In this document: positions 43,629 to 58,377 of the stretch, piece after piece
Numbering within the stretch: position 1 is the stretch's first letter
Layout: each line of letters opens with the position of its first letter
Origin: a virus
Taxonomy: Duplodnaviria; Caudoviricetes
DNA: 64,000 bases
Virus record (IMG/VR): IMGVR_UViG_2654588150_000002
Coordinates: 418-64,417 of that record
Direction: 5' to 3' (one strand)
The notes under the pieces: model-generated
What the model was told of the DNA's origin: nothing
Databases searched by the model: none
The model's input: the letters and a program-made list of their open reading frames with translations, nothing else
Translations under genes and position numbers: made by a program

Positions 43629-43667
43629 TGGTTTGGTAATCGCACCAGTTCGTATAGAATCGAACCG
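43629..43667 (+). promoter_or_regulatory. Promoter (TAGAAT -10) with operator upstream of the giant gene
   Basis: TGGTTTGGTAATCGCACCA 43629-43647; TAGAAT 43655-43660. Confidence 0.6.
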
Positions 43668-43695
43668 CTGCGCAGTGCCAAACCCGAGGAAACCC

Positions 43696-46600
43696 ATGCC
43701 GAAGAATCTCTTTCTCCAGACGCCGAGCGCTGGCGACATCGAACAAGTATTTGACGATAGCGCCGCACAGATCATGCGCTCTCTGCCGGAGTTCCCCGGC
43801 ACCGCTCCTTCCGCACAACCCGCCGCGCCGACCAACGCGGCGCCCGATCCCTCGCAAGCACCCGCGCCGGCCATGCCGGCGCCTGCCATTTCTACCGGCG
43901 GCCGCGCCGCTCCCACTCGTGATGACCTGATCCGCCGCGCTCAAGAGCTTGGCGTCGATCCGAACCTCGCGCTGTCTGTCAACGGCATCGAATCGAAAGG
44001 CAACTGGAACAGCAAGGATTCGCCGAAGGGCGCTGTCGGCGGTATGCAGGTTATGCCCGCCACGTATCAGCAAATGATGGGCACCGATCAGGGCATGCGC
44101 GATCCGTGGAACAACATGGAGGCGGGCCTGCGTTATCTCGCCTACGGCAAGAAAGTGCTCGGCACCGATGATCCGAGGCTCCTCGCCGCTGGATACCAGG
44201 CCGGCTACGGCAATAAGGACGTTCGTGCAGGCAAGCTGCCGACGAACGTTTCGGACGGCAACCTGACGCCCGCGCAATACGCTGAACGTGTTGCCGGCGG
44301 CGCCGCGCCGGCTGCTGGTGCGCCGAGTGCCGCGCCGACGTCGGGCAAGTCGCGCCTTGCTGCCGTGCTCGGACTCGGCTCGCAGGACGCAACAACCGAG
44401 GGCGGCCGCTATCGCGAGCTTACGCCGGAAGAAGCCGAGCAGTTTGCGAAGCAAGGCGCCCTCGACGCTGCTAATAAGGATGAGCCGGGCCGCTTCCGCG
44501 CGCTCACGCCTGACGAACTGGCGAACATGCCGGCGAATGCGCTGACCGATGGCGCGGAGAAGAAGGACGGCAAAGGCTGGTGGTCGCGCAACCTTGGCTA
44601 TCTCGGCACGGACGCGAAGGTAGGCTGGAACAACCTGCTTTCGTCGCTCGACGGCATCAAGCAGGCAGAGCACGGCGACATGCTTGACGTGTTCACGAAG
44701 AAGTACACGCAACAGCAGATCGACGCGGACCCGAATCTCCAGAAGGAATACGCCGAGCGCGCGGCCAGCTATGCGCGCGTTACTAACGACATCAAGGCTC
44801 GCGGCGAGGAAACCGCCAAGCTCAGTAAGGACAATCGCCCGGCGACGCAAGAGTTTCTTGCTACCGGCCAAGCCGATGACGCTGGCTGGAACTGGAAAAC
44901 GCTCAAGGCGATCGGTAGCGCCGTGGTGAAAGACCCGGTTGGCGTTGTCGCCGACCTTGGCGTCCAGTCTGCCCCGCAAATGGTCGCGATGATGGCGGCC
45001 GCAGTGCTCGCGCGTTTTGGTGGTGGCGGTGTGACCGGCGCGGCACTCGCGGGCGGCGCTACGTCCGGCTACCTGCAATTCGGCTCCGACTATTCGGACC
45101 TGCGCCAGCAAGGCATGTCACACGAAGAAGCGTTCAAGACGGCGGCCGCGAAGGCTTCTGTCGTTGGTGCGCTCGATGGCGTGTCGATGGGCTCGGCCGG
45201 GCACGCGCTCGATGCTGTGCTCGCCAAGAGCGGCGCGAACAAGGCGCTTTCTGTCGTGAAGAAGGCCGGCACCATTGCCGGCGAGACGGCGAAGCAAGGC
45301 GCACTCGGCATGGCAGGCGAAGCCGGCGGCTCGATTGCATCCGGCCGCGCACCGAACCCGACCGATGTTGTCGCCGAAGGGCTCGGCGAAATCGCAGGCG
45401 CACCGTTCGAGGCAATCAGCACGCACGGCGGCAAGCCCGCCACGGCACCGCAACCCGCCACGGCACCGCAACCCGCTGCACCGACTGGCCCGATTGGCCG
45501 TGCGCAGCAGGCCGCGCAGAATGGCATCAACACGCCTCCCGCCGGCCCGGCACCTACGGCGCCGTCGCCTGGCGCCGCGCCCGCACCCACGGCAACGTCC
45601 GCCACGCCTGACGCGCAAGGCGTGTCACGCACGGTCACCGGCGACGATGGGCAGGCGTACACCATCACGACCGGCCCCGCCGGTCCTACGGTCACGCGGG
45701 TAGACCCTGAGACGGGCGAGGTCACGACGGAAGCGGAAGCGCCGGCCGCCGCGGCGCCCGCGAAAGAAAATCTCGAAGCCGTTGGCGAAGCCGGTAAGGG
45801 CATCGTCGACGGCATGTACGACCACCTGTGGAGCCGCGTCGAGGCTGGCAAGACCAGCGAGCAAGACGGCTGGAAACCGTCGCCGATCCTGCAAGCCGCG
45901 AAGGTGCTGCGCAATCAGGGCGTCGAGCTGACGCGTGACACGTTCCCCGAGTTCGCGCAAAAGCTCGACAAGGCGATCGAGGGCAAGACGGGCGACGAGT
46001 ATCAGAAGGCGATTCGCGGTGTGCTCACCGAGTACGCGAAGCCGGCCACGGAAACGAAGCCGGCGGCGCCGAAATCTGCCGCGCCCGCCGACGAGCCTCT
46101 ATATAAGAACGCCGTCGACCTCGTGACCGGCACCGGCCGCGCGTCGCTGTCGGAAGTGCAGCGTCACTTGAAGGTAGGCTACAACCGTGCCGCGCGTCTC
46201 CTCGAAGCGATGGAGAAAGACGGCATCGTGTCGCCGGCCAAGCCGGACGGCTCGCGCGAAGTGCTCAAGAAAGGTGAGCCGAAACAGGAGGCGACGCCGG
46301 CCGCCGAGGATGCGCGCGCGCTGACGGAATGGAGCGATCCCGAGCTGCGCGAACGCCTGCGCTATGTAACGCAGCAGGCCAAGACGAACGGCGGATGGAA
46401 CAAGCAACTGACGGCCGAGCGCAAGCGCGTGTCGAGCGAAATCGACCGCCGCAATGCTGGAGAACCGGCGCCGGCCGCTGCACCGGAAAGTGCCAAATCT
46501 GGCACCACGCCCGCGAAGCTCACGCCCGAGCAGATCACGAAGGGCAAGGAGGATGCGCTCTACCCGCGCGTGGTCGAGATGCTGAACGGCCGCGAGGCAA

Positions 46601-49600
46601 TCCGGCCGCAGGACATAATGGCTGCGACCGATGTTGGTTACAACCGCGCCGCGCGTGCGCTCGAAGTCGCCGAAGCAGAAGGCCACGTCGGGCCGCTGCA
46701 AGAGGACGGCACGCGCGCGGTAACGGCCAAGGAGGCAACCGCGAATGGAAGTGGAAGCGATAGCGCTGCTGATGGACGAGCAGATAGCGGACGCGGTGAC
46801 GAACGCGTATCTGAACCCGTACAACCCGAGCCCGCCGCCGATGCCGGCGAATCCCGTGCTGAACGCGCTGCACCTGTACATGCTAAGGGAAATGACGCCG
46901 CCGCTCCTGCACTGAGCAAGGAGCTTGCCGGCGCGAAGCCGCGCTATGCGTTTGGTTCGAAGCAGTTCGACCTCGAATTTGCAAGCGATATCGACCGCGC
47001 TGCGTACATTACCGCACAGAAGAACCCGAGCAAGCGCGACGCCGAGTATGTGAAGTTCGTTGCTGACGCTACGGGCATGACTGAGGCACAGGTGCGCGAG
47101 CACGGCGCCAAGGTACGCGAGAACATCAAGGGCATGGCGCGCGACGCCGAGCCCGGCAAGCTGACCGTTCCGCAAATCCACGGCACGGCCGCCGCCGCTG
47201 GCGCCGCCCCGGCCGCCGGCAAGTGGTTCGGTTCGCAGGAAAAGGCGCAGGCGTTCATCGACAAGAAGGGCTTGAACGAATCGCACGATATCGTACAGAC
47301 CGGCAAGGTGCGGTTTGAGATCAAGCCGAAGGCTGTCACGCAGATTGATACCGCAGCGCACGAAGCCGCGACGAGCCCGCGCAACGACACGCCGGAACCC
47401 ACACAGGCGCAGAAGGAAGCGGGTAACTACAAGAAGGGGCACGTCAACGTTCAAGGTCTCGACATTACGATCGAGAACCCGCAGGGCTCCACGCGCAGCG
47501 GCACGAGCGAGGACGGCACAACCTGGTCGCACAAAATGTCGGACCACTACGGCTACGTCAAGCGCACGATGGGCGCGGACGGCGATCAGGTGGACGTATA
47601 TGTCGGCCCGAACCCGGACGCCGGCCGCGTCTACGTGGTGGATCAGATCGACCAAAAGACGGGCAAGTTCGACGAGCACAAGGTAATGCTCGGCTTCGAC
47701 TCGCAAGAGGCCGCCGTCGCCGCGTACAGCTCGAACTTCGACGCCGGCTGGAAGGTCGGGCCTGTCACGGAAATGTCGATCGACGAGTTCAAGACGTGGC
47801 TGAAAGAGGGCGACACCGCCGCTCCGGCCGCTTCGGCTCCCGAGGTCGACCGTAGCCCGGAAGCGACGCGCGCCGCTGCACTCGACTTCGTGCGCGCCGC
47901 TCGCGAACGCGGTGCGAAGAAGGCCGCCGACGTCATGCCTGGCATCAAGGGCGGCCGGACGTTCCAGACGGGCGCCCCGCTCGTGAAGCCGGGTTTCATC
48001 ATGGTCGACGGGCCGAAGGGCCAGCAGTTCAAAATCGCTGACCTGTGGAAAGAGTCTGAGCTGGACGCGAAGAAAGGCGCCAAGACGCTCGACGCGCTGA
48101 AAGAGCGCGTCACGCGCTTTGCTTCTGGCATGTCGCGCTCGCGTGACTTTGGCGCCGCAGCGCGCGCCGGGCACGGTATCGGCGTGGATATCGGCGAAAT
48201 GTCGGACGCGAGCCTGCGCGAGCTGGCCGCCGCCATCGCGAACGGCGCGCAAGCGTTCGTCGACTCTGGCGCGTTCGGGCTGTTCAAGAAGTCGCTCAAG
48301 GCCGAGGGCGCTGTAAAGGCGATGGACTTCGACGCGATCCTCGCGAAGTACGACACGCTCATGCAGTACATCGGCGAGGCGAACGCGGCAGAGGAAAGTC
48401 TCACGCCGCCGCTGCTGGTTATGCCTGACGTGGTAGGCGACCAAGCCGCATCGCTCGCGCTTATCGAGCAGCACGCGAAATGGATCAAGGCCGAAATGGG
48501 CGGCAACCTCTCGCGCCCGATCATCCCTCTGCAAGCCGGCGAGTTGTCGCTGTCGGAAGCGTTCGACCGCGTAGTGAATGCGCTGGACTCGGATAACTTC
48601 ATTGTCGGCATCCCGTCGAACGCCGCTGCCGTGAGCCCGGAGGAGTTCGTCGACTTCCTGCGCACGAGCAAGCCGAAGGCGATTCACATTCTCGGCGCAC
48701 TGGCAGACCGCACGCTCGGGCCACGCCTCGAACAGATCATTGAAGCCGGCCGCGCCGAAGGTATGGACGTGTCGGCCGATGCGAACGTGCTGCGCTCGCG
48801 CATCCTGACGCCGGGCACGCCGACCGCCGCACGCACCGACAAGATTGAGGGCGAACTGAGCCGCCGCGCCGTCGCTGACGACGTTGCGACGCAAGCCGCC
48901 GTCGAGGGCACGCCGGCCGCCGAGCTGGACGCCAAGGTTGCAGAGCAACGCACCAAGGTCGACGAGCTGCGCGCGAACAAGGGCGACGGCTACGACAAGA
49001 ATCTCGCGATTGCCGAGAGCACGCTGGCCGGCTACGAGAAGGCGCGCGACAACCTCGCGCCGAAGCCCGTCAAGGTGAAGAAGGTAAGCGACGGCATCAC
49101 GGCTATCGTGATTGACCCGAGCGCCGGCCGCACCGCGCCGAAGGCCGGCGAGTCGCAGAGCAAGTGGCAAGCACTGAGCGCCGCCGAGCAGCATGACGTT
49201 GTGGAGCGCGCCGGCTACGCCGACGAGACGGGCAAGCTCACGCCGGAAGGCATGAAGATCGCGGATTCGCATTTCTCCGACATTCCGGCCGCCGCGCGCG
49301 CGAAGATCGTCGATGCGATGGCCGCGAACGATGGTGCGAAGCCGAACGGTACGGACCCGTTTGCAGGCAATAAGATTTTCACGGCTGACAAGGTTGCGGC
49401 CGCACGCGCGCTGCTGAAATCGAAGCTCGGGCAACTGAATAGCGGACTCGATCCTGAAATGGCCGTGGCGGGCATGACCATCGCGGGCGGCTACATCGAA
49501 TCCGGTATGCGCTCGTTCAGCGAGTTCGCCAAGACGATGACGGCTGACCTCGGCGATGCGATCAAGCCCTACCTGCTGTCTTTCTGGAACGGCGCACGCG

Positions 49601-52600
49601 ACTACCCCGGCCTCGACACGAAGGGCATGACGGACCATGCCGAATCGAAGCGCCTGCACGATGAATTGATGGCATCGCAATCCGAATCGACTAGAATCGA
49701 ATCGGCACAACCGCAGCAAGGAACCCAAGATGAACGACTCGCAACTGAGGAATCTCCTGCTGCAAGCGATGCAGGAGTACGCACCGAAGCAAACGGCGCA
49801 GATGAAGGCTCGCGGGCAACTGAGCGAGTATCTGGACAGCCTGACGGGCGAAACGCTGGAAGCGATCAACGGGCCGACGCAGGAGGCAATACTCGGTCTC
49901 GTGACGCAGGGAAGCGAGACGTTCGAGCCGAACCCGCTCAAACGGACGCAGGAAATCAACATGGCGACGAACAGCGCGACGGAAATAGCGCTGGCGCAAG
50001 CGATGGAAACGATTCGGGCGCTAAATCCCGAGTCGGCAATGACTACCGCATCCAACCCGGAGAGCTGAAACGGGAAGGCTCGTGGCGCACCACGGCCGCG
50101 CGCAACGTCGATATCGTCGAGCTGGCGAAGAAGCTCACGGAAGAAGGCCGCGCGCCGACTGCCGAAGAACAGGCGTTGCTCGCCCGCTTCACGGGATGGG
50201 GCGCCAGCGAAATCGCTAACGGCGTCTTCCCCGATAAGTACGGCCGCTATAAGGATTCGACGTGGCAAGCGCTCGGCGAACGCCTGAAAGCCGCGCTCAC
50301 GCCCGAGCAGTACGACACGGCGAAGCGGACCACGCAGTACGCGCACTACACGTCTGAGGGCGTAATCAGCGGCATCTACCGCGCTTTCGAGCGCATGGGC
50401 TTTGCCGGCGGCAAGTTCGTTGAGCCGGGCATGGGCGTGGGCTCGTTCAAGGGCTTGATGCCTTCTGCGATGGCGGCCGCGTCGCACTACACCGGCATCG
50501 AGATGGACCCGGTAACGGGCATGATTGCGAAGCTGTTGTATCCGCAATCGAACATCATCAACGGCGACTTCACCAAGACGGCACTCCCGCGCGACTACTT
50601 CGACGCGGCGATCGGCAACCCGCCGTTCGGCAATATCACGATCAGCAACGATCCTGAATACCGCAAGAACGCGTTTCTGCTGCACGACTATTTCTTTGCC
50701 AAGACGCTCGACCGCGTGAAGCCGGGCGGCATGCTCGTGTTCGTGACGTCCAAGGGCACGATGGACAAGGGCAGCGATCGTGCGCGATCGTACCTGGCTG
50801 ACCGCGCGAACCTGATCGGCGCCATTCGCCTGCCGCAGACCGCGTTCAAGGACAACGCCGGTACCGAGGTTGTTACCGACGTGCTGTTCCTGCAAAAGCG
50901 CGGCCCCGGTATCGAGGACAACGGCGTCCAGTGGCGCGGCACGGCCGAAGTGACCACGCCGCAAGGCCCGGCCACGATCAACGAATACTTCGCGGCGCAT
51001 CCCGAGCAAGTGCTCGGCGCGAACGCGCTCACGGGCTCGATGTACCGCGCGAACGAGTACACGGTCATTCCCGAACCGGGCGTCGACCTCGACGCAGCGT
51101 TCGCGAAGGCTGTCGAGCGCTTGCCCGAGAACGTCTACAAGGCCGGCGCCAAGAACCCGCAAGCGGCCAAGGCACAAGCGCTGCAACGCGACTTCAACCC
51201 GCTGAACAAGAAAGAGGGTGGCGTCTACGTTGGCCCGGACGGCACGCTGATGCAGACCGAGGACGGCTCGGGCGTGCCGCTCGAATCGCGCCGCGGTGCG
51301 GACGGTAAGGAGATCGCGCTCAAGCCGAAGGAAAAGGAGTTTCTGAAATCGTGGGCGAGCCTGCGCGACGCGCTCAAGCAGGCGCAGCTCGACCAGCTCA
51401 CGAACGGCGATTGGGAAAAGTCGCTCGCCGCGCTGAACACTGCATACGATGCGTTCGTGAAGAAGCACGGCAACTTGCTCGACTTCTCGACCATCACGCG
51501 CACCGACGACGAAGGCAACACGACCGAGACGAAGCGCTTCAAGAATGACCCGCTCTTGCGCCTCGACGTGGACGGCCCGCTCGCCTACTCGCTGGAGCAC
51601 ATCACGCAGGCCGGCGACATCGTGAAGGCGCCTGTCCTGTCTGAGCGCGTGCTCGAACAGCCGCGCGAGCCGGAAATTAAGACGACGAACGACGCGCTGT
51701 TCGTGTCGATGAACAATCTCGGCCGCCTCGACCTCGACGACGTTGCGAGGCTCGGCAAGATGACGCGCGACGAGGCTATCGAAGCGCTCGGCACGTCCAT
51801 CTACGAAGACCCGGCGAAGGGCTGGCAGACCAGCGACGAGTACCTTTCTGGCAACGTCGTGCGCAAGCTGAAAGAGGTCGAGGCCGCCGCGCGCACCGAC
51901 AAGCGTTTCAAGCGCAACCTCGATGCGCTGCTGTCTGTTCAGCCGAAGCCGCTCGGCCCGAGCGACATCACGACGAAGCTCGGCCAGAACTGGATTCCGC
52001 CGAAGGACATCGCGCAGTTCGCGACCGAAGCGCTCGGCGAGAAAATCGCCGTGACGTACAACGAGCGCACGGGCCAATGGTCCGCCGATCAATCCGGCTC
52101 GAACATGACGGCCTTCAACGGCCCGCGCATGGACGCCGGCATGATTCTCGAATCGGTGCTGAACAACAAGCAGCTCAAGATCACTTTCCGCGATCAGGAC
52201 GGCAAGACGCACGTTGACGCCGAATCGACGGAAAAGGTCAACGACATCGCGAACAAGATGCGCGCCGCGTTCAGCTCGTGGGTTTGGACGGACCCGGCCC
52301 GCGCTGACCGCCTGGTGAATTACTACAACGAGAATTTCAACAACATCGCGCCGCGCCAGTTCGACGGCTCGCACCTGACGTTGCCGGGCGTGTCGCTGCG
52401 CTTCAACCTGCGCCCGAATCAGAAGCGCGCTATCTGGCGCGCGATCCAGCAAGGCGACACGTACCTCGCGCACGCTGTCGGCGCCGGCAAGACGTTCGAA
52501 ATGATCGCGATTGGCATGGAGGAGCGCCGGCTCGGGCTCTCGAACAAGCCCATGTACGCCGTGCCGAATCACATGCTTGCGCAGTTCGCGCGCGAGTTTC

Positions 52601-55600
52601 TGGAGTTGTACCCGGCCGCTAACATCATGGTCGCAGACGAACAGAACTTCCACACGCACAACCGCCGGAAGTTTGTCGCGCAGGCCGCACTGAACAACCC
52701 GGACGCGATCGTTATCACGCACTCGGCGTTCGGCCGCATCGGCATGTCCGACGAGTACGCGAGCAAGTTCATCTCCGATCAGATCGACGAGTGGCAGGCC
52801 GCGCTCGATGAGACGGACAAGAGCGACCGCATCACGCGCAAGCAGATCGAGCGCCGCATCGAGCAACTGGAGCGCCGCCTCGAAGCACGGCAGGGCAACG
52901 AGAAGAAAGACCGCGTGCTCTCGTTCGAGGAGCTTGGCGTTGACCGCCTACTGGTGGACGAAATCCACGAGTTCCGCAAACTCGACTTCGCGACGAACCA
53001 AGGCAACATCAAGGGTATCGACCCGAACGGTTCGCAGCGCGCGCTCGACCTGTACATGAAAAAGCAGTACCTCGACACGAAGAACCCCGGCCGCGCGCTG
53101 GTGGGTGCATCGGGCACGCCGGTAACGAACACGATGGGCGAGTTGTACACGGTGCAGCGCTTGTTCCAAGCCAAGCAGCTCGAAGAAGATGGCCTGCACA
53201 ACTTCGATGCGTGGTCGAACCAGTACGGCGACATCGTTGCGGGCTTCGAGCAGAACGCGGCCGGCGGCTATGAAATCGTCTCGCGATTCGCGAAGTTCCA
53301 GAACGTGCCCGAACTGATGCGCCGCGTTCGCTCGTTCATGGACATTCTCACGAGCCAGCAACTGTCGCAGTACGTCGAACGCCCGGACGTCAAGACGGGC
53401 GGCCGCGAGGTCAGGGTTACGCCGTCGCCGTTCGGCTACAAGGCATATCAGAAAACGCTCGAATCGCGTATCGCGGCGATCCGCCGCCGCAAGGGTCCGC
53501 CGAAGAAGGGCGAGGACATCATCCTCAAAGTCATTTCGGACGGCCGTTTCTCGGCGATCGACATGCGCTTTGTCGATCCGACCTCGCCGAGCGATCCGAA
53601 CAGCAAGCTGAATCAGATGCTTGCGGCAGTCGCGGCCGATTACCACGCGGCGGCCGACTTCGAATATTCGACCAACGGCAAGGTCGATCCGCTCAAGGGC
53701 GCGTCGCACATCATCTTTACGGACATCGGGCTCGGCGAGCAGTCGGCCGAGACGCGCGGCTTCGACATGAAAGCGTGGATCGAGCACGCCCTCGTCGAGG
53801 CTGGCGTAAAGCGCGAGCACATCGCGTTCATCCGCGACTACAACACGCACGCGAAGAAGGAACGGCTGTTCGCTGCGATGCGCTCGGGCGAAAAGCGCAT
53901 CATGATCGGCGGCAAGGATATGGAAACGGGCGTCAACGTCCAGAAGCGCCTCTACACTGAGGAGCACTTGGACGCGCCGTGGTTCCCGGCATCCGTCGAG
54001 CAGCGCGAGGGCCGCATCGTGCGGCAGGGCAATCAGAACAAGCTCGTCGGCATCCGCGCGTGGGCGACGAAGGGCAGCTACGATGCAACCATGTGGGGCA
54101 TGAATGCGCGCAAGGCCCGCTTTATCGAGCAGGCTTTGACGGGCGATGACAGCGTGCGCTCGCTTGAGGACGTGTCGGAAGCATCCGCGTTCGAAATGGC
54201 GGCCGCGCTGGCATCGGGCGACGAGCGCTACATGAAGCTCGCCGGCCTGCGCTCGGATACCGAACGCCTCGAACGCCTCGCGAGCGCTCACCACGACGAG
54301 CAGAACAAGCTGCGCCGCGACAAGAACTACGCGGAACACAGCATCGAGCACGACCAAAAGCTCACGGACGAACTGAGCGAAGCGCTCAAGAAGGCCAAGC
54401 CGATCCGCGCGGGCGAGTTCGCCGGCACGGTGGGTAACGTCACGATCACTGAACGCTCGGAGTTCGGCCCGGCGCTGTTCAACCGCTTTAAGGAGTTGGC
54501 CGAGAAGGAAACCGACACGGCCGAGCAGATCGGCGAAATCGGCGGGTTCCCGATCATGTACCACGGAACGACGCTGAAAGGCTCTGGCGAGTACACGGCC
54601 GCCGTGACGATCGACATTCCGGGCGACCCGAACCCGCTTATCGCCATGCCGCTCGACCCGGACATGCCGATCGGCGGTATCGCGACGCGCGCGGCGAATC
54701 AGGTGAACAACCTCGAAGGCACGCGCGCACAGCTCGCCGAGCGCATCAAGATTAACGAGAATCGCCTCAAGGCGATCAACGGCCGTATCGGTGCGCCGTT
54801 CCCCGAGCAAGGCATCCTGCTGGAAAAGACGGCCGAGCTTCACTCGCTGCAAGACGAACTGGCGAAGGAAAAGGCGGCCGAGAATGCGCCGGCACCGAGC
54901 GCGGACGCGGCAGCGGCTACCGTCGACATCGAGGGTAAGCCGGCCGAGAAGTTCAGTACGCCGTCCGTCGATACGCGCGGCCCGCTCACGGCTGAAACGC
55001 TCGGCGAAACGCTGCGCGGTGGCGCTTATGGCGACGTCGTGGGCAAGCTGATCGACGCCAATAGTGTGGTGCTGCACGATACCGCACAAACCTTCCCGAG
55101 CAATAACGCCGCCGGCAAGCAGGGCATGACGGGCGCAGACGGCAAGATTCACCTTGCCGCCGACCGCCTCACGCCGCGAAGCGCGGCGGCCGTGCTGCTG
55201 CACGAGGCGTTCCACTCGGGCGTCGAGAAGTTGATCGGCTCCGAAGCGTGGACGGGCCTGCTGTCGCGCCTGAATGCGCTGATGACGCAAGGCCGCCAGT
55301 CGAGCGGCCGCGCACGCCAGTTCTTCGATGCGGCCCGCGCGAGCGTCGAGCAAGCCGGCACGGATGCGTCGATGCGTGCCGAGGAGTTCGGCGCCTACAC
55401 GGTCGAGCACTTCGAGCAAGCGCCGCGCGCCTTCCTGCGTTGGGTGGATGATGCAGTGGGCGCCGTCAAGGCATGGGCTCTGCGCCGATTCGGCCAGCAA
55501 CTCGGCGCCGTGACGCCCGCGCAGCTCCGCGCACTCGCTGTCGCCGCGCTGCGTGACGGCAAGATCGGCACCGACAACGGCCCGAACGGTGGCGAGCGCT

Positions 55601-58377
55601 TCTCGACGCCGCCGGCCGGCACGCCGAGCACGGCGCCGAGCGGCCTGACGCCGCCGGCACCGGGCCGCTTCGAGCGCTTCCAGGCGACGGTGCAGGACAA
55701 CATGAACCGCGTGAAGAAGGTTCAGCAGCGCATCGCCAAGCTGACGGGCGCGGCGCTGCCCAATCACGCGGACTACTACCGCGCTGAGACGAACCGGCCG
55801 GGCCGCATCGCGGCGCGCAAGGAAGATGCGGACCGCAAGATGTTTGAGCCGCTGATGGCTGACCTCGCGGAATCGGGCCACACGCCCGACGAGCTGGCGA
55901 ACCTGCTGCACGCGCAGCACGCCGAGGAGCGGAATAAGCGCGTTGCGCTCATCAACGACAAGATGCCGGACGGCGGCTCGGGCATGACGACGGCTGACGC
56001 TAACTCGATCCTCGCGCAGTACGCGGGCGCGACCGAGCTGCAACGCATCGCGCAGAAGGCGCGCGACATCGCCAAGGCAACGCTCCAGCTCAAGTTCGAC
56101 TACGGCCTGATCGACCAGGACACGCTCGACGCGCTCACGAACGCCTACCAGTATTACGTGCCGCTGAAAGGCGACCTCGAACCCGGCCCGAAGGTCAAGC
56201 GTGCGATGGGTCACAGCTCGCGCGACGAGTACATTCTGGAAAACATCGCGCGCGACTATAACCAAGCCGTGACCGTGGGCGAGAAGAACCTCGCGCGTCA
56301 ATCGCTCCTCGCGCTCGTGGCCGAGAACGATGACCCGAGCCTGTGGACGATCGGCGTTCCGCCGAAGGGCCGCTACGTCGCCGGCCGCGTGTACAACGTG
56401 GTCGACGTTGGGCCGCTCGGCGGCACGACGGGCACGACGGTAGGCTCGTTCACGTCGCAATCTCAGGTGAATGCGTTCCTCGAAGGGCTCGGCGCGCACG
56501 CCCGGCCGAACTACATCGTGCTCGACTCGAACGGCGAGCGCGTGGCCGAGTTCACGAAGCCGCTGCAAGAGAATGAGGTTATGGTCTACGTCCACGGCGA
56601 TCCCGTGCGCATCCAGATTCACGACCTCCCGCTCGCGCGCCAGCTCCGTCCGCTCGACAACGCGCAGATGCACCCGATCCTCGAAGCGATGCGCGGCCTC
56701 AACCGCTACTTCTCGAAGATTTACACCGGCTACAACCCGGCCTTCATCCTGCGCAACGCAATGCGCGACGCGATGACGGGCACGGTCAACATGGTCGGCA
56801 ACGAGGGGGCGGCGACGGCGGCGCGCGCGTGGACGAACTACCCGAAGGCGCTCAAGGCGCTCGCGCAGTGGGCGGCAACGGGCAAGTCGCCTACCGGCCG
56901 CACGGGCACCTACCTGACCGAGTATCGGATGCAGGGCGGAAAGACGGGCGCCTCGTGGATGAGCGACCTCGACGCGCAGGGCAAGAACCTGCAACGTCAC
57001 TTCGACGACGCTTACGGCGCGCGCGGCTACCTGAAAGACGGGAAGAACCTGAAAGCAGCGGGCATCGCCGGCCGGAAGATTGTCGGCGGCATGGCGCACG
57101 TTATCGAGGTCGGCAACCAGGCAACCGAGAACGCGCTGCGCCTGTCGCTGTACATCGCACTGCGCGAGAAGGGAGAGACGCCGGGCCGCGCCGCGGCGGC
57201 CGCCAAGAATGTGACGGTGGACTTCGACCGCAAGGGTTCGATGACGGGCGCGCTCGGCGCCATCTACCTGTTCTTCAACCCGGCTGTGCAGGGTACGGCG
57301 AACGCGCTCAAGACGCTGGCGAAGGGCGAGCACCGCACGCAGGCATTCGTTGCGCTCGGCATGCTCGCGACGCTTGGCTTCCTCCTCGCGGGCTCGGGCA
57401 TGGACGACGACAAGGAGAAATGGCTCGGCACGGACTGGTCGATGCGGACGAAGAACATGCGCCTGACCGTGGGGAGCCACACTATCAGCGTGCCCGTGTC
57501 GCAGGAGTTCGCGCCCGTCTACGCGCTCGGCGTGGGCGCGGCCGAACTGCTGCGCGGCGTGAGCCCGATCAAGACGGCGGCGCGGTTCCTCTCCTCGCTG
57601 ACTGACGCCTACTTCCCGCTGTCGGGCGCCTACAACGCGGACAGCGACAATCACGGGATGGACGCGGCACTCGCAGCCGTGCCGACCGCGCTCAAGCCGG
57701 CGGCCGAGCTGGCGGCGAACCGTAGCGGCTCGTTCGGCAGCAAGATCGTGCCGGAGAACGAGAACAACGTGAACGTGCCCGACAACCTCAAGAAGTACCG
57801 TTCGAGCGAGGGCACGATCGCGGACACGCTCGCGCAAGGGATGGCGAAGGGTGGCGAGTTCGCCGGGTTCAAGCCGTATGAAAACGACATTTCCAAGGTG
57901 AGCCCGGAAACGCTCAAGTACCTGTATCAGACGTTCGGCGGCGGCCTCGCACAGTTCTTCGTCGATACGGCGACGCTCGGCAAGCTGGCCGTGACCGAGC
58001 CCGGCGCGATCCAGCTCAGTGACGTGCCGATCGCGAAAGACCTCGTGAAAACCGACGACGTGAAGCCGATTCGCGGCCGCTACTTCGAGCTTAAAAAGGA
58101 GGTCGACGAGGCGCACGACGAGTTCGCGGCGGCGAAGAAGGCGCACGACCCGGAGGCAATCAAGGAGATTGTGACGCGGCCGGGCCAAGCCGAAATGCTC
58201 GGGCTCGCCCGCATCGTTCAGCGCACCGACAAGGTAGTGAAGGTGCTGCGCGACGAGGAATCGACGATCAAGCAGGACACGAAGCTCACCATCGAGCAAC
58301 GCCGCGCGAAGCTGAAAGAGAACGAGGCAAAGCAGGAAACCATCATGCGCGGCACGATTGGCGTGATCGAGAAGTGA
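43696..58377 (+). CDS. Giant DarB-like polyvalent virion protein (SLT, 2x FtsK-gamma, PPase-like, TGT-like, N6-MTase, SNF2 helicase, LPD38-like), 4893 aa
   Basis: IES/GGMQVMP (SLT); GYNRAAR x2; [18 protein letters not shown]; EPGMGVG and NPPF; [23 protein letters not shown]; GAGGA RBS. Confidence 0.92.
46745..46915 (+). CDS. Nested +1-frame gene (56 aa) inside the giant gene
   Basis: AAGGAGG RBS; GC3 bias switches to this frame over exactly this span. Confidence 0.55.
49730..50068 (+). CDS. Nested +1-frame gene (112 aa), TnpV-like
   Basis: AAGGA RBS 7 nt upstream; GC3 bias in this frame; P..T..M...GQL..YLD and NM..N.A.EI.L pattern. Confidence 0.65.

Follow-up and report, generated by a model that had tools for sequence, protein, structure and literature searches.

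Can a complete gene sit, read in another frame, within the linker of a giant phage protein? The question is raised by a stretch of 64,000 nucleotides (nt), referred to here as the window, which covers positions 418 to 64,417 of the virus record IMGVR_UViG_2654588150_000002 (64,417 bases). The closest named relatives of this record are the Bcep22-like Burkholderia podophages (Lessievirus), and the Ralstonia podophages of Gervaisevirus and Cimandefvirus are more distant relatives. On its plus strand the window encodes a giant DarB-like polyvalent virion protein, and inside that gene, in the spacer ahead of the methyltransferase (MTase) and helicase half, an open reading frame (ORF) of 112 amino acids (aa) runs in the +1 frame. 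A preliminary description, made from the letters of the window, had read this ORF as a TnpV-like gene overprinted on the giant gene, served by an internal promoter and overlooked by standard annotation. Our comparison of sequences suggests, with high confidence, that 49730-50068 is a genuine, separately translated gene that fills the spacer before the MTase. As the description had proposed, a separate gene lies hidden there, and it is conserved and under purifying selection.

An out-of-frame gene with native codon usage

The nested gene (49730..50068, plus strand) is delimited by ORF, codon, comparative, fold and profile data, and its 112-aa product, P0001, is an acidic, helical and remote relative of TnpV (PF14198). 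The ORF is present as first described, opening with an ATG at an offset of +1 within the giant frame. The Shine-Dalgarno site AAGGA, reported 7 nt before the ATG, is also there (49718..49722, plus strand), and relatives carry its equivalents. Size by itself is not evidence for a gene at this locus, since 15 kb of this GC-rich DNA hold 39 ORFs of at least 80 aa, including an antisense one of 2255 aa. The nested ORF is raised above chance by a frame flip in codon usage and by the comparative data.

The flip had been noticed by eye as a switch to A/T-ending codons in the giant frame, and the numbers bear it out: between 49753 and 50022 the GC content at third codon positions (GC3) is 0.33-0.47 in the giant frame, against 0.76-0.79 in the +1 frame. 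The mean giant-frame GC3 over the whole gene is 0.816. It is the nested frame, rather than the host frame, that holds the native codon usage. In the giant frame, the linker across the nested gene (49729..50040, plus strand) is indeed featureless; it comprises 104 low-complexity residues rich in D, E, G, R, S and A, with a single L and no I, F, Y, W, M or C, and it also stands out by its dNN/dNS ratio and divergence (see below). Downstream of it, the translations delimit a tail-overlap zone (50041..50068, plus strand), in which the nested tail TTASNPES and the following stop codon lie against the conserved first residues of the MTase-helicase module.

Conservation in Burkholderia- and Ralstonia-type phages

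Loci for comparison were taken from viral contigs, two bacterial genomes (Caballeronia and Burkholderia) and GenBank phages. The core set of 20 loci comprises the window and L001-L019, with some phages counted twice because they occur in two collections. A word-indexed protein search returned seven called proteins similar to P0001, with lengths of 107-113 aa and identities of 55-98%. By tblastn, the P0001 peptide was located in the records of 10 Burkholderia and 31 Ralstonia phages, and among the 40 matches listed of these 41 it lies under the giant coding sequence (CDS) only, in every one.

In all 20 loci the nested ORF is intact, starts with an ATG behind a Shine-Dalgarno site and is offset by +1 from an open giant frame. 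For Bcep22, GP4 and Gerry the same offset follows arithmetically from the annotated CDS coordinates. This Shine-Dalgarno site is strong: Bcep22-type loci have GAAGGAGG, those of the Ralstonia type CAGGAGG, and the window and L009 share AAGGAA; further relatives have AAGGAG or GGAG forms. The same arrangement recurs in three of three additional viral contigs (L026-L028). It is found again in L029, a metagenome contig of much lower GC content, where the nested ORF is once more in the +1 frame, follows AAGGAG and starts with GTG. The L029 product is 93% identical to P0081, a protein that passes the Pfam cut-off for TnpV (see below), and the upstream domains of the L029 giant protein, ddrB-ParB and RelA/SpoT-like, differ from those of the window. 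Stops in the +1 frame or loss of the ribosome-binding site among homologues would have spoken against a gene; the frame is intact in 20/20 loci and in the 4/4 further ones, each with a start codon and a Shine-Dalgarno site. Burkholderia-type and Ralstonia-type nested proteins share 36-37% identity, with the helix-forming positions kept. In loci of both types, as in L029, the nested stop falls inside the first codons of the MTase-helicase module.

Two Ralstonia phages, GP4 (L020) and Claudette (L024), lack about 340 residues of the MTase module and retain an intact nested ORF. The gap starts about 75 nt past the nested stop and corresponds, by comparison with Gerry and the window, to window residues 26-365 counted from 50029. 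It explains the odd statistics downstream of the nested ORF in the codon-phase comparison.

Substitution pattern and selection

Across 10 Burkholderia-type loci, the most variable codon phase within the overlap is the third position of the +1 frame (0.194/0.183/0.260), whereas the giant frame's third position varies most in the flanks of 450 nt (0.364 and 0.294). A codon alignment of the giant gene from nine loci (the window, L009, L001-L004 and L006-L008; the partial loci L005 and L010 and the Ralstonia group were excluded) was then used to examine synonymous differences where the giant-frame residues are identical. The gene-wide mean is 0.215, and 11 of the 15 lowest among 457 sliding windows across the giant gene sit at 49678-49969. 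The rate stays at 0.21-0.25 until 36 nt ahead of the nested ATG, drops to 0.060 in the final 35 nt before it, amounts to 0.033-0.108 within the nested ORF and 0.124 in its tail, and is back at 0.214 directly past the nested stop. Amino-acid divergence of the giant frame behaves in the opposite way, reaching 0.25-0.34 over the nested ORF compared with about 0.13 in the flanks, and returning to 0.14 in 50041..50068.

Frame-specific selection, a check that the preliminary description had asked for, was estimated by an OLGenie-style classification with uncorrected p-distances and a bootstrap over codons. The nested-frame ratio dNN/dSN is 0.67 (0.51-0.88) in 11 Burkholderia-type loci and 0.32 (0.14-0.68) in 7 Ralstonia-type loci, so that the nested frame is under purifying selection in both groups. 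The corresponding giant-frame ratio dNN/dNS is 1.02 (0.80-1.30) in the Burkholderia type and 0.94 (0.39-2.22) in the Ralstonia type. Over the nested gene, the giant frame is kept open and evolves like a neutral, disordered linker. Its openness is required, since no stop may part the upstream modules from the methyltransferase-helicase. Together, these patterns suggest an overlap with two zones: a long one, in which the nested gene is constrained and the giant frame is passive, and a short terminal one, in which the roles would be reversed, because the nested tail is predicted to be disordered and giant-frame divergence drops there.

The nested product and its relationship to TnpV

AlphaFold2, run on an alignment of 20 nested-protein sequences (A2), returned a model with a mean predicted local distance difference test score (pLDDT) of 89.9 and a predicted template modelling score (pTM) of 0.75. 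The predicted helices span residues 3-17, 19-27, 31-58 and 69-96, and the tail 105-112 is disordered (pLDDT <50). The product is thus predicted to be a compact, acidic, helical protein. Acidity is a property of the family, with a median isoelectric point (pI) of 4.6 in A2 and a pI below 5.5 in 81 of the 98 members of a wider set.

TnpV was first named in the clostridial transposon Tn4451 and is a widespread mobile-element family of unknown function. The wider set was obtained by searching the A2 profile against 1.84 billion representatives, which yielded 97 proteins at E<=1e-3, all of 85-197 aa; together with P0001 they make up the 98 members. Because this exhaustive search gave nothing longer than 197 aa, a TnpV-like domain is not known in frame in any giant protein. 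P0001 itself does not reach the Pfam TnpV gathering cut-off of 27 bits, and its best match among the PHROG families has an E-value of 0.23. Nine of the 20 A2 members match Pfam TnpV at E<=1, the best at 0.0035 and all below threshold, and 19/98 members of the wider set match it at E<=0.01. When ten proteins of the wider set were scanned singly, six matched TnpV and three exceeded the cut-off: P0053 with 38.1 bits, P0099 with 29.9 and P0081 with 29.1. The A2 profile finds these three with E-values of 1.2e-6 (P0053), 6.6e-5 (P0081) and 6.2e-4 (P0099), which places the nested family in profile-level homology to proteins that pass as TnpV. An hhalign comparison of A2 with the six TnpV-hitting proteins gave 98.7% and E 2.4e-16 over 91 columns (about 24-110 of the TnpV model), in a test that is partly circular because its target set was drawn from the profile's own matches. 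In the ESM Atlas, the top cluster scored 0.92 and carries TnpV on 19% of its members.

The likeness to TnpV that had been seen by eye therefore stands as a remote relationship, visible in the family profile, and fails for P0001 taken alone, which has no Pfam match. By sequence, the nested family of ~100-aa proteins grades into Pfam TnpV as distant kin. TnpV proteins are likewise helical, of about 100-110 aa, and carried by mobile elements. The settings differ. Classical tnpV genes, according to the available part of one report (PMC3158075), are free-standing and lie beside a large serine recombinase in transposons, whereas the nested gene is embedded out of frame in the virion-protein gene of proteobacterial podophages, away from that typical setting. 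A role of the Tn4451 TnpV in excision is, in the same part of that report, only postulated from a similarity to lambda Xis (PMC3158075).

Structural searches with VIA-align reached a best Z of 7.1 in the wide comparison, in the noise range for helical proteins. No matches were obtained by tblastn of P0001, P0017, P0054 and P0099 against plasmids or of P0054 against phages. The Pfam TnpV model matched nothing in the genomes carrying L009 and L010, but 14 control genomes were equally silent, which makes this negative uninformative. For P0053 and P0066, no locus was confirmed in viral contigs.

Several family members depart from the usual form. L028 (2-373), P0027, P0032, P0039 and P0040 extend past the usual C-terminal end and share the motif SLY[DE]LT. 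P0056 (192 aa) starts out like the linker as read in the giant frame and changes over to the C-terminal helix of the nested frame, which suggests a frame-shifted contig or a variant. A second, unexplained association of TnpV with the SNF2 family comes from integrative and conjugative elements of Streptococcus suis, in which tnpV-bearing cargo elements insert specifically into the snf2 gene, as stated in the accessible part of the source (PMC9815147).

Nested genes in distant DarB-like phages

The first 400 residues of the window's MTase module, used as a tblastn query, matched 121 phage records, namely P1 darB and 120 others. From these we chose ten diverse phages, plus P1, and scanned their frames with the wide family profile. 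Seven of the ten distant phages have a +1-frame family match upstream of the MTase module and inside an open giant frame, with E-values that refer to a small search set: Pseudoalteromonas Y7 (2.9e-11), Atu_ph08 (6e-7), PEp14 (9e-7), VvAW1 (2e-6), Itty13 (4e-6), SJM3 (5e-6) and POI1126 (4e-5). Each of the seven ORFs starts with ATG behind a Shine-Dalgarno site of the GGAG type, and each shows the same flip in GC3. Six of them end within about 130 nt of the module start, and that of Atu_ph08 ends about 570 nt upstream.

Six of the seven distant products form a second subfamily, with a mean identity of 0.45 in the nested frame versus 0.36 in the giant frame over the same bases. Members of this subfamily are present in 21 phage records and in a single plasmid record, and the giant CDS covers them in every case. 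Three of the seven distant proteins match Pfam TnpV below threshold, at 15.7-20.7 bits. A sample of 401 bacterial genomes from the phylum to which the Caballeronia genome belongs contained the family once, in the prophage-bearing centre genome itself.

A different arrangement is seen in another of the ten, the Sinorhizobium phage PBC5 (L038, 560-979). In the deposited record, orf33 joins the upstream module in frame to the TnpV-like ORF and orf23 encodes the MTase-helicase separately; homology with Atu_ph08 carries on in the other frame. This arrangement is ambiguous between a one-base indel or sequencing error and a natural split form.

Start site and possible promoter of the nested gene

Independent initiation is favoured over frameshifting, because the start codon and Shine-Dalgarno site are universal and because the +1 frame is closed upstream in five lineages: a stop lies 6-15 nt ahead of the start in L026, Pseudoalteromonas Y7, PEp14, SJM3 and VvAW1. 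We propose that translation of the nested protein would start internally on the giant gene's late mRNA, from a ribosome-binding site that belongs to the nested gene itself. An internal promoter may add to its expression in the Burkholderia-type phages.

The preliminary description had argued for such a promoter from a resemblance between 49687-49704 and the giant gene's own -10 region (43650-43667). The two 18-mers do agree at 15 of 18 positions and each overlaps a sigma-70-like site, which falls short of establishing a promoter; the shared 10-mer alone is not beyond chance, with three matches at no more than one mismatch versus 2.25 expected. A consensus scan finds one candidate internal sigma-70-like promoter, ATGGCA-17-TAGAAT (49669..49697, plus strand), versus 0.1 expected in shuffles. 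In Burkholderia-type loci with diverged flanks, a TTGCAA/TTGCGT...TACAAT block can be seen by eye at the equivalent place. The same consensus scan detects no internal promoter site in Bcep22, and by eye nothing obvious appears in the Ralstonia-type loci or L026. No suppression of synonymous change was found at -70..-36 relative to the nested ATG; the suppression stops at -35. An internal promoter is plausible, then, and is not robustly conserved.

The giant DarB-like gene

The giant gene (43697..58377, plus strand) was delimited from the ORF list, the sequence and Pfam. Its frame is open over 43633..58377 (4914 aa), with a likely start at the ATG at 43697, which GAGGAA precedes. A consensus scan found one sigma-70-like promoter upstream (TTGGTA-16-TAGAAT; 43633..43660, plus strand; 0.1 expected in shuffles), which includes most of the 18-mer compared above, and a GGTTTGAT...TATAGAATCGAACC block upstream of the giant gene is kept in Bcep22-type loci. 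The encoded modules run in the order SLT, FtsK-gamma, InPase, linker, Eco57I-type N6-MTase, SNF2/DEAD helicase and LPD38. In Pfam, Eco57I matches with 26.7 bits (cut-off 25.3), and the helicase families Helicase_C, ResIII, DEAD and SNF2 match only below their own cut-offs. The giant gene thus combines an N6-adenine MTase and a SNF2/DEAD helicase in one large phage protein. Its homologues are annotated as 'DarB-like antirestriction protein' in Bcep22, DC1, JC1 and others, and the homologue in JC1 is listed among the identified virion proteins in the available part of the JC1 paper (PMC9144972).

Several further observations concern this gene. The InPase domain (window 47404-47806, giant residues 1258-1391) is also present in the Caballeronia prophage L009, and Bcep22-type phages have in its place an unrelated module with a DGHH motif, ParB-like in a by-eye reading; this is a module swap within the giant protein. 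A second region of low synonymous change, at 47545-47760, was rejected as an alignment artefact of these non-homologous modules. The 2255-aa antisense ORF covers 46099-52866 on the minus strand, and it and the further long antisense ORFs over the giant gene are typical of the spurious ORFs of GC-rich coding DNA. The annotation of the Ralstonia phage RPZH6 divides the giant gene between two CDSs that overlap, ORF73 and ORF72 (L016, 618-639); this break, some 880 nt upstream from the nested ORF, is likely a frameshift that has nothing to do with it. In the Pseudomonas phage Itty13 (L034, MW460249.1), the two CDSs annotated over the giant gene run against the direction in which tblastn matches the MTase module. 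On the strand of that match the giant frame stays open through the whole 4.1-kb locus, and the CDS annotation is probably on the wrong strand in this GC-rich DNA.

Discussion

Our results point to a nested gene for a small protein in the linker of the DarB-like gene, and other explanations of the locus have to be weighed against it. One is that no nested protein exists, the suppression and the open +1 frame reflecting an RNA or DNA element or chance in GC-rich sequence, in which ORFs of at least 80 aa are plentiful (39 in 15 kb, one of them the 2255-aa antisense ORF). However, an element of that kind would have to mimic the +1-frame codon periodicity of the substitutions, dNN/dSN below 1 in two groups, a suppression that begins about 35 nt ahead of the ATG and stops at the stop codon, helix-forming positions kept at 36-37% identity between the Burkholderia and Ralstonia types, a confident fold from just 20 sequences and significant homology to an independent protein family; we regard this as highly improbable. 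Another possibility is that the segment is in truth an in-frame domain of the giant protein, put out of frame by sequencing errors or by indels that compensate each other. The codon-usage flip would equally follow from a local frame error, and P0056 does read the linker followed by the nested C-terminus. Against this, phages that were sequenced independently, from at least eight named genera and several unclassified records, agree in the +1 offset, the start and the stop, and the exhaustive profile search returned no protein above 197 aa; such an explanation is scarcely credible. Programmed ribosomal frameshifting from the giant frame would instead fuse the upstream modules to the TnpV-like domain in a truncated product, in place of a free 112-aa protein. 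Ahead of the ATG, the window has 20 open codons in the +1 frame and Bcep22-type and Ralstonia-type loci have 24-30, and the PBC5 record as deposited has its upstream module in frame with the TnpV-like ORF. Yet upstream +1 stops 6-15 nt ahead of the start exist in the five lineages named above, every locus has an ATG or GTG with a properly spaced Shine-Dalgarno site, and gene callers give free proteins of 85-197 aa. The frame change in PBC5 lies just past a residue block common with Atu_ph08 and may be a one-base sequencing or mutational indel. We consider frameshifting very unlikely, if somewhat less so than the two preceding explanations.

Some results do weigh against a separately translated, TnpV-like gene. 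With one locus per deep lineage, nested dNN/dSN is 0.90 (0.74-1.10) and not significant, probably because the uncorrected p-distances are saturated. In a single genome, the openness of the giant frame is unremarkable when the codons of the small protein are resampled (P = 0.04-0.27). P0001 matches nothing in Pfam, TnpV included, even at E<=1, Foldseek found no structural neighbours above noise in PDB or BFVD (E<=1e-3), and the hhalign comparison carries the circularity described above.

Which of the two readings is the older? Overprinting, as first described, had the small gene arising over the giant one. The two frames do overlap, and the direction is probably the reverse, with the linker of the giant protein overprinting an older small gene. 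The nested gene would be the older reading because it has genome-typical codons and homology to a family of small proteins, and because the giant frame is unconstrained. The giant protein may then have arisen through a fusion of the flanking genes that read through the small gene in another frame. No unfused relative was found among the loci compared, so the history of this fusion is one that we infer.

Complete genes in another frame of a longer gene, with a start of their own, are known from the same Bcep22-like phages: the spanin gene Rz1 lies within Rz in this way, and the JC1 paper assigns the Rz1 of Lessieviruses to the embedded class (PMC9144972). The present case differs in that the host is a polyvalent protein of about 4,900 aa, the embedded gene sits in an inter-module linker without detectable constraint on the host frame, and it is the embedded gene, not the host frame, that has the native codon usage. 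The giant gene also resembles P1 DarB and other polyvalent proteins (Iyer et al. 2017, PMC5512222), in which an N6-adenine MTase and a SNF2/DEAD helicase are likewise joined with other conflict domains; P1 darB, unlike the giant gene, is a stand-alone gene with its own promoter and without a TnpV-like ORF in the 5.5 kb scanned around its start.

Standard annotation has indeed missed the nested gene, as anticipated: the phage records examined list only the giant CDS over the ORF, or orf33 in PBC5. Among these records, the genera without an annotation of the ORF are Lessievirus, Gervaisevirus, Cimandefvirus, Pavtokvirus, Lastavirus, Ittyvirus, Namazuvirus and Roslyckyvirus, together with unclassified phages. 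The nested gene is not mentioned in the available part of the JC1 paper (PMC9144972), and the text of the polyvalent-protein paper (PMC5512222) does not contain 'overlapping', 'linker', 'alternative frame' or 'Bcep22'. No description of it was met in the literature searched, a coverage that did not extend to Gill et al. 2011 (Bcep22/BcepIL02) or to supplementary files. Embedded phage genes are already known, and a conserved TnpV-like gene in the DarB-like linker across many phage genera appears to be new.

What the nested protein does can be approached from its position. The preliminary description had proposed a partner of the adjacent MTase-SNF2 module that acts as inhibitor, chaperone or loader. 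In our reading, it could be an accessory factor that serves the DarB-like MTase-helicase half as chaperone, assembly factor or regulator and whose synthesis keeps pace with that of the giant protein. Among the functions considered, this tentative assignment draws on the MTase-helicase module being the invariant neighbour, on the varying upstream neighbour, and on the nested stop within the module's first codons. Some observations speak against it: the nested ORF survives in GP4 and Claudette, where about 340 residues of the MTase core are missing, two of the ten distant phages (a fecal phage scaffold and a Bacteroides phage) have no match, and a six-frame scan of 5.5 kb around the start of P1 darB found no TnpV-like ORF. 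Equally tentative is the alternative that the protein is an independent effector of anti-defence or host takeover, such as an acidic decoy, or a recombination accessory factor, merely parked in the giant gene. The acidity of the family (pI <5.5 in 81/98) and the persistence of the ORF where the MTase core is deleted fit this alternative. So do, in the available parts of the respective papers, the excision role postulated for the Tn4451 TnpV, the place of tnpV beside large serine recombinase genes (PMC3158075) and the predicted serine recombinase of JC1 (PMC9144972). On the other hand, the ORF lies upstream of the MTase-helicase module in 11 of 11 distinct arrangements examined, at a distance of at most about 130 nt in ten and about 570 nt in Atu_ph08, even as the upstream neighbour changes from an unassigned region in the window to RelA/SpoT-like in L029. 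Moreover, the family was seen in just that one prophage-bearing genome among the 401 sampled, and the acidity of the protein argues against a DNA-binding, Xis-like factor.

Extending the accessory role further, it is tempting to speculate, with a little less confidence again, that the injected DarB-type methyltransferase-helicase machinery has an obligatory third component in the TnpV-like protein. As a chaperone or timer, for example, this protein would keep that half inactive, or fit for packaging, within the producing cell. Through its place out of frame in the linker, its synthesis would be coupled to that of the giant protein in cis and in time, and in transposons and integrative elements the function of TnpV might lie with SNF2/MTase anti-restriction modules instead of excision.

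Several of these phages have been studied for therapy or biocontrol, and their gene lists would be short of one conserved gene. The locus would also provide a clean example of overprinting, in which an older gene appears to survive within the linker of a fusion protein; such survival would explain why the linker is long, disordered and compositionally odd. For TnpV, the arrangement offers a genetic handle, as a knockout of the nested start codon that is silent in the giant frame is feasible. Finally, the fixed place of the nested gene upstream of the MTase-helicase hints at a factor on which an understanding of the production, packaging or control of DarB-like virion proteins may depend.

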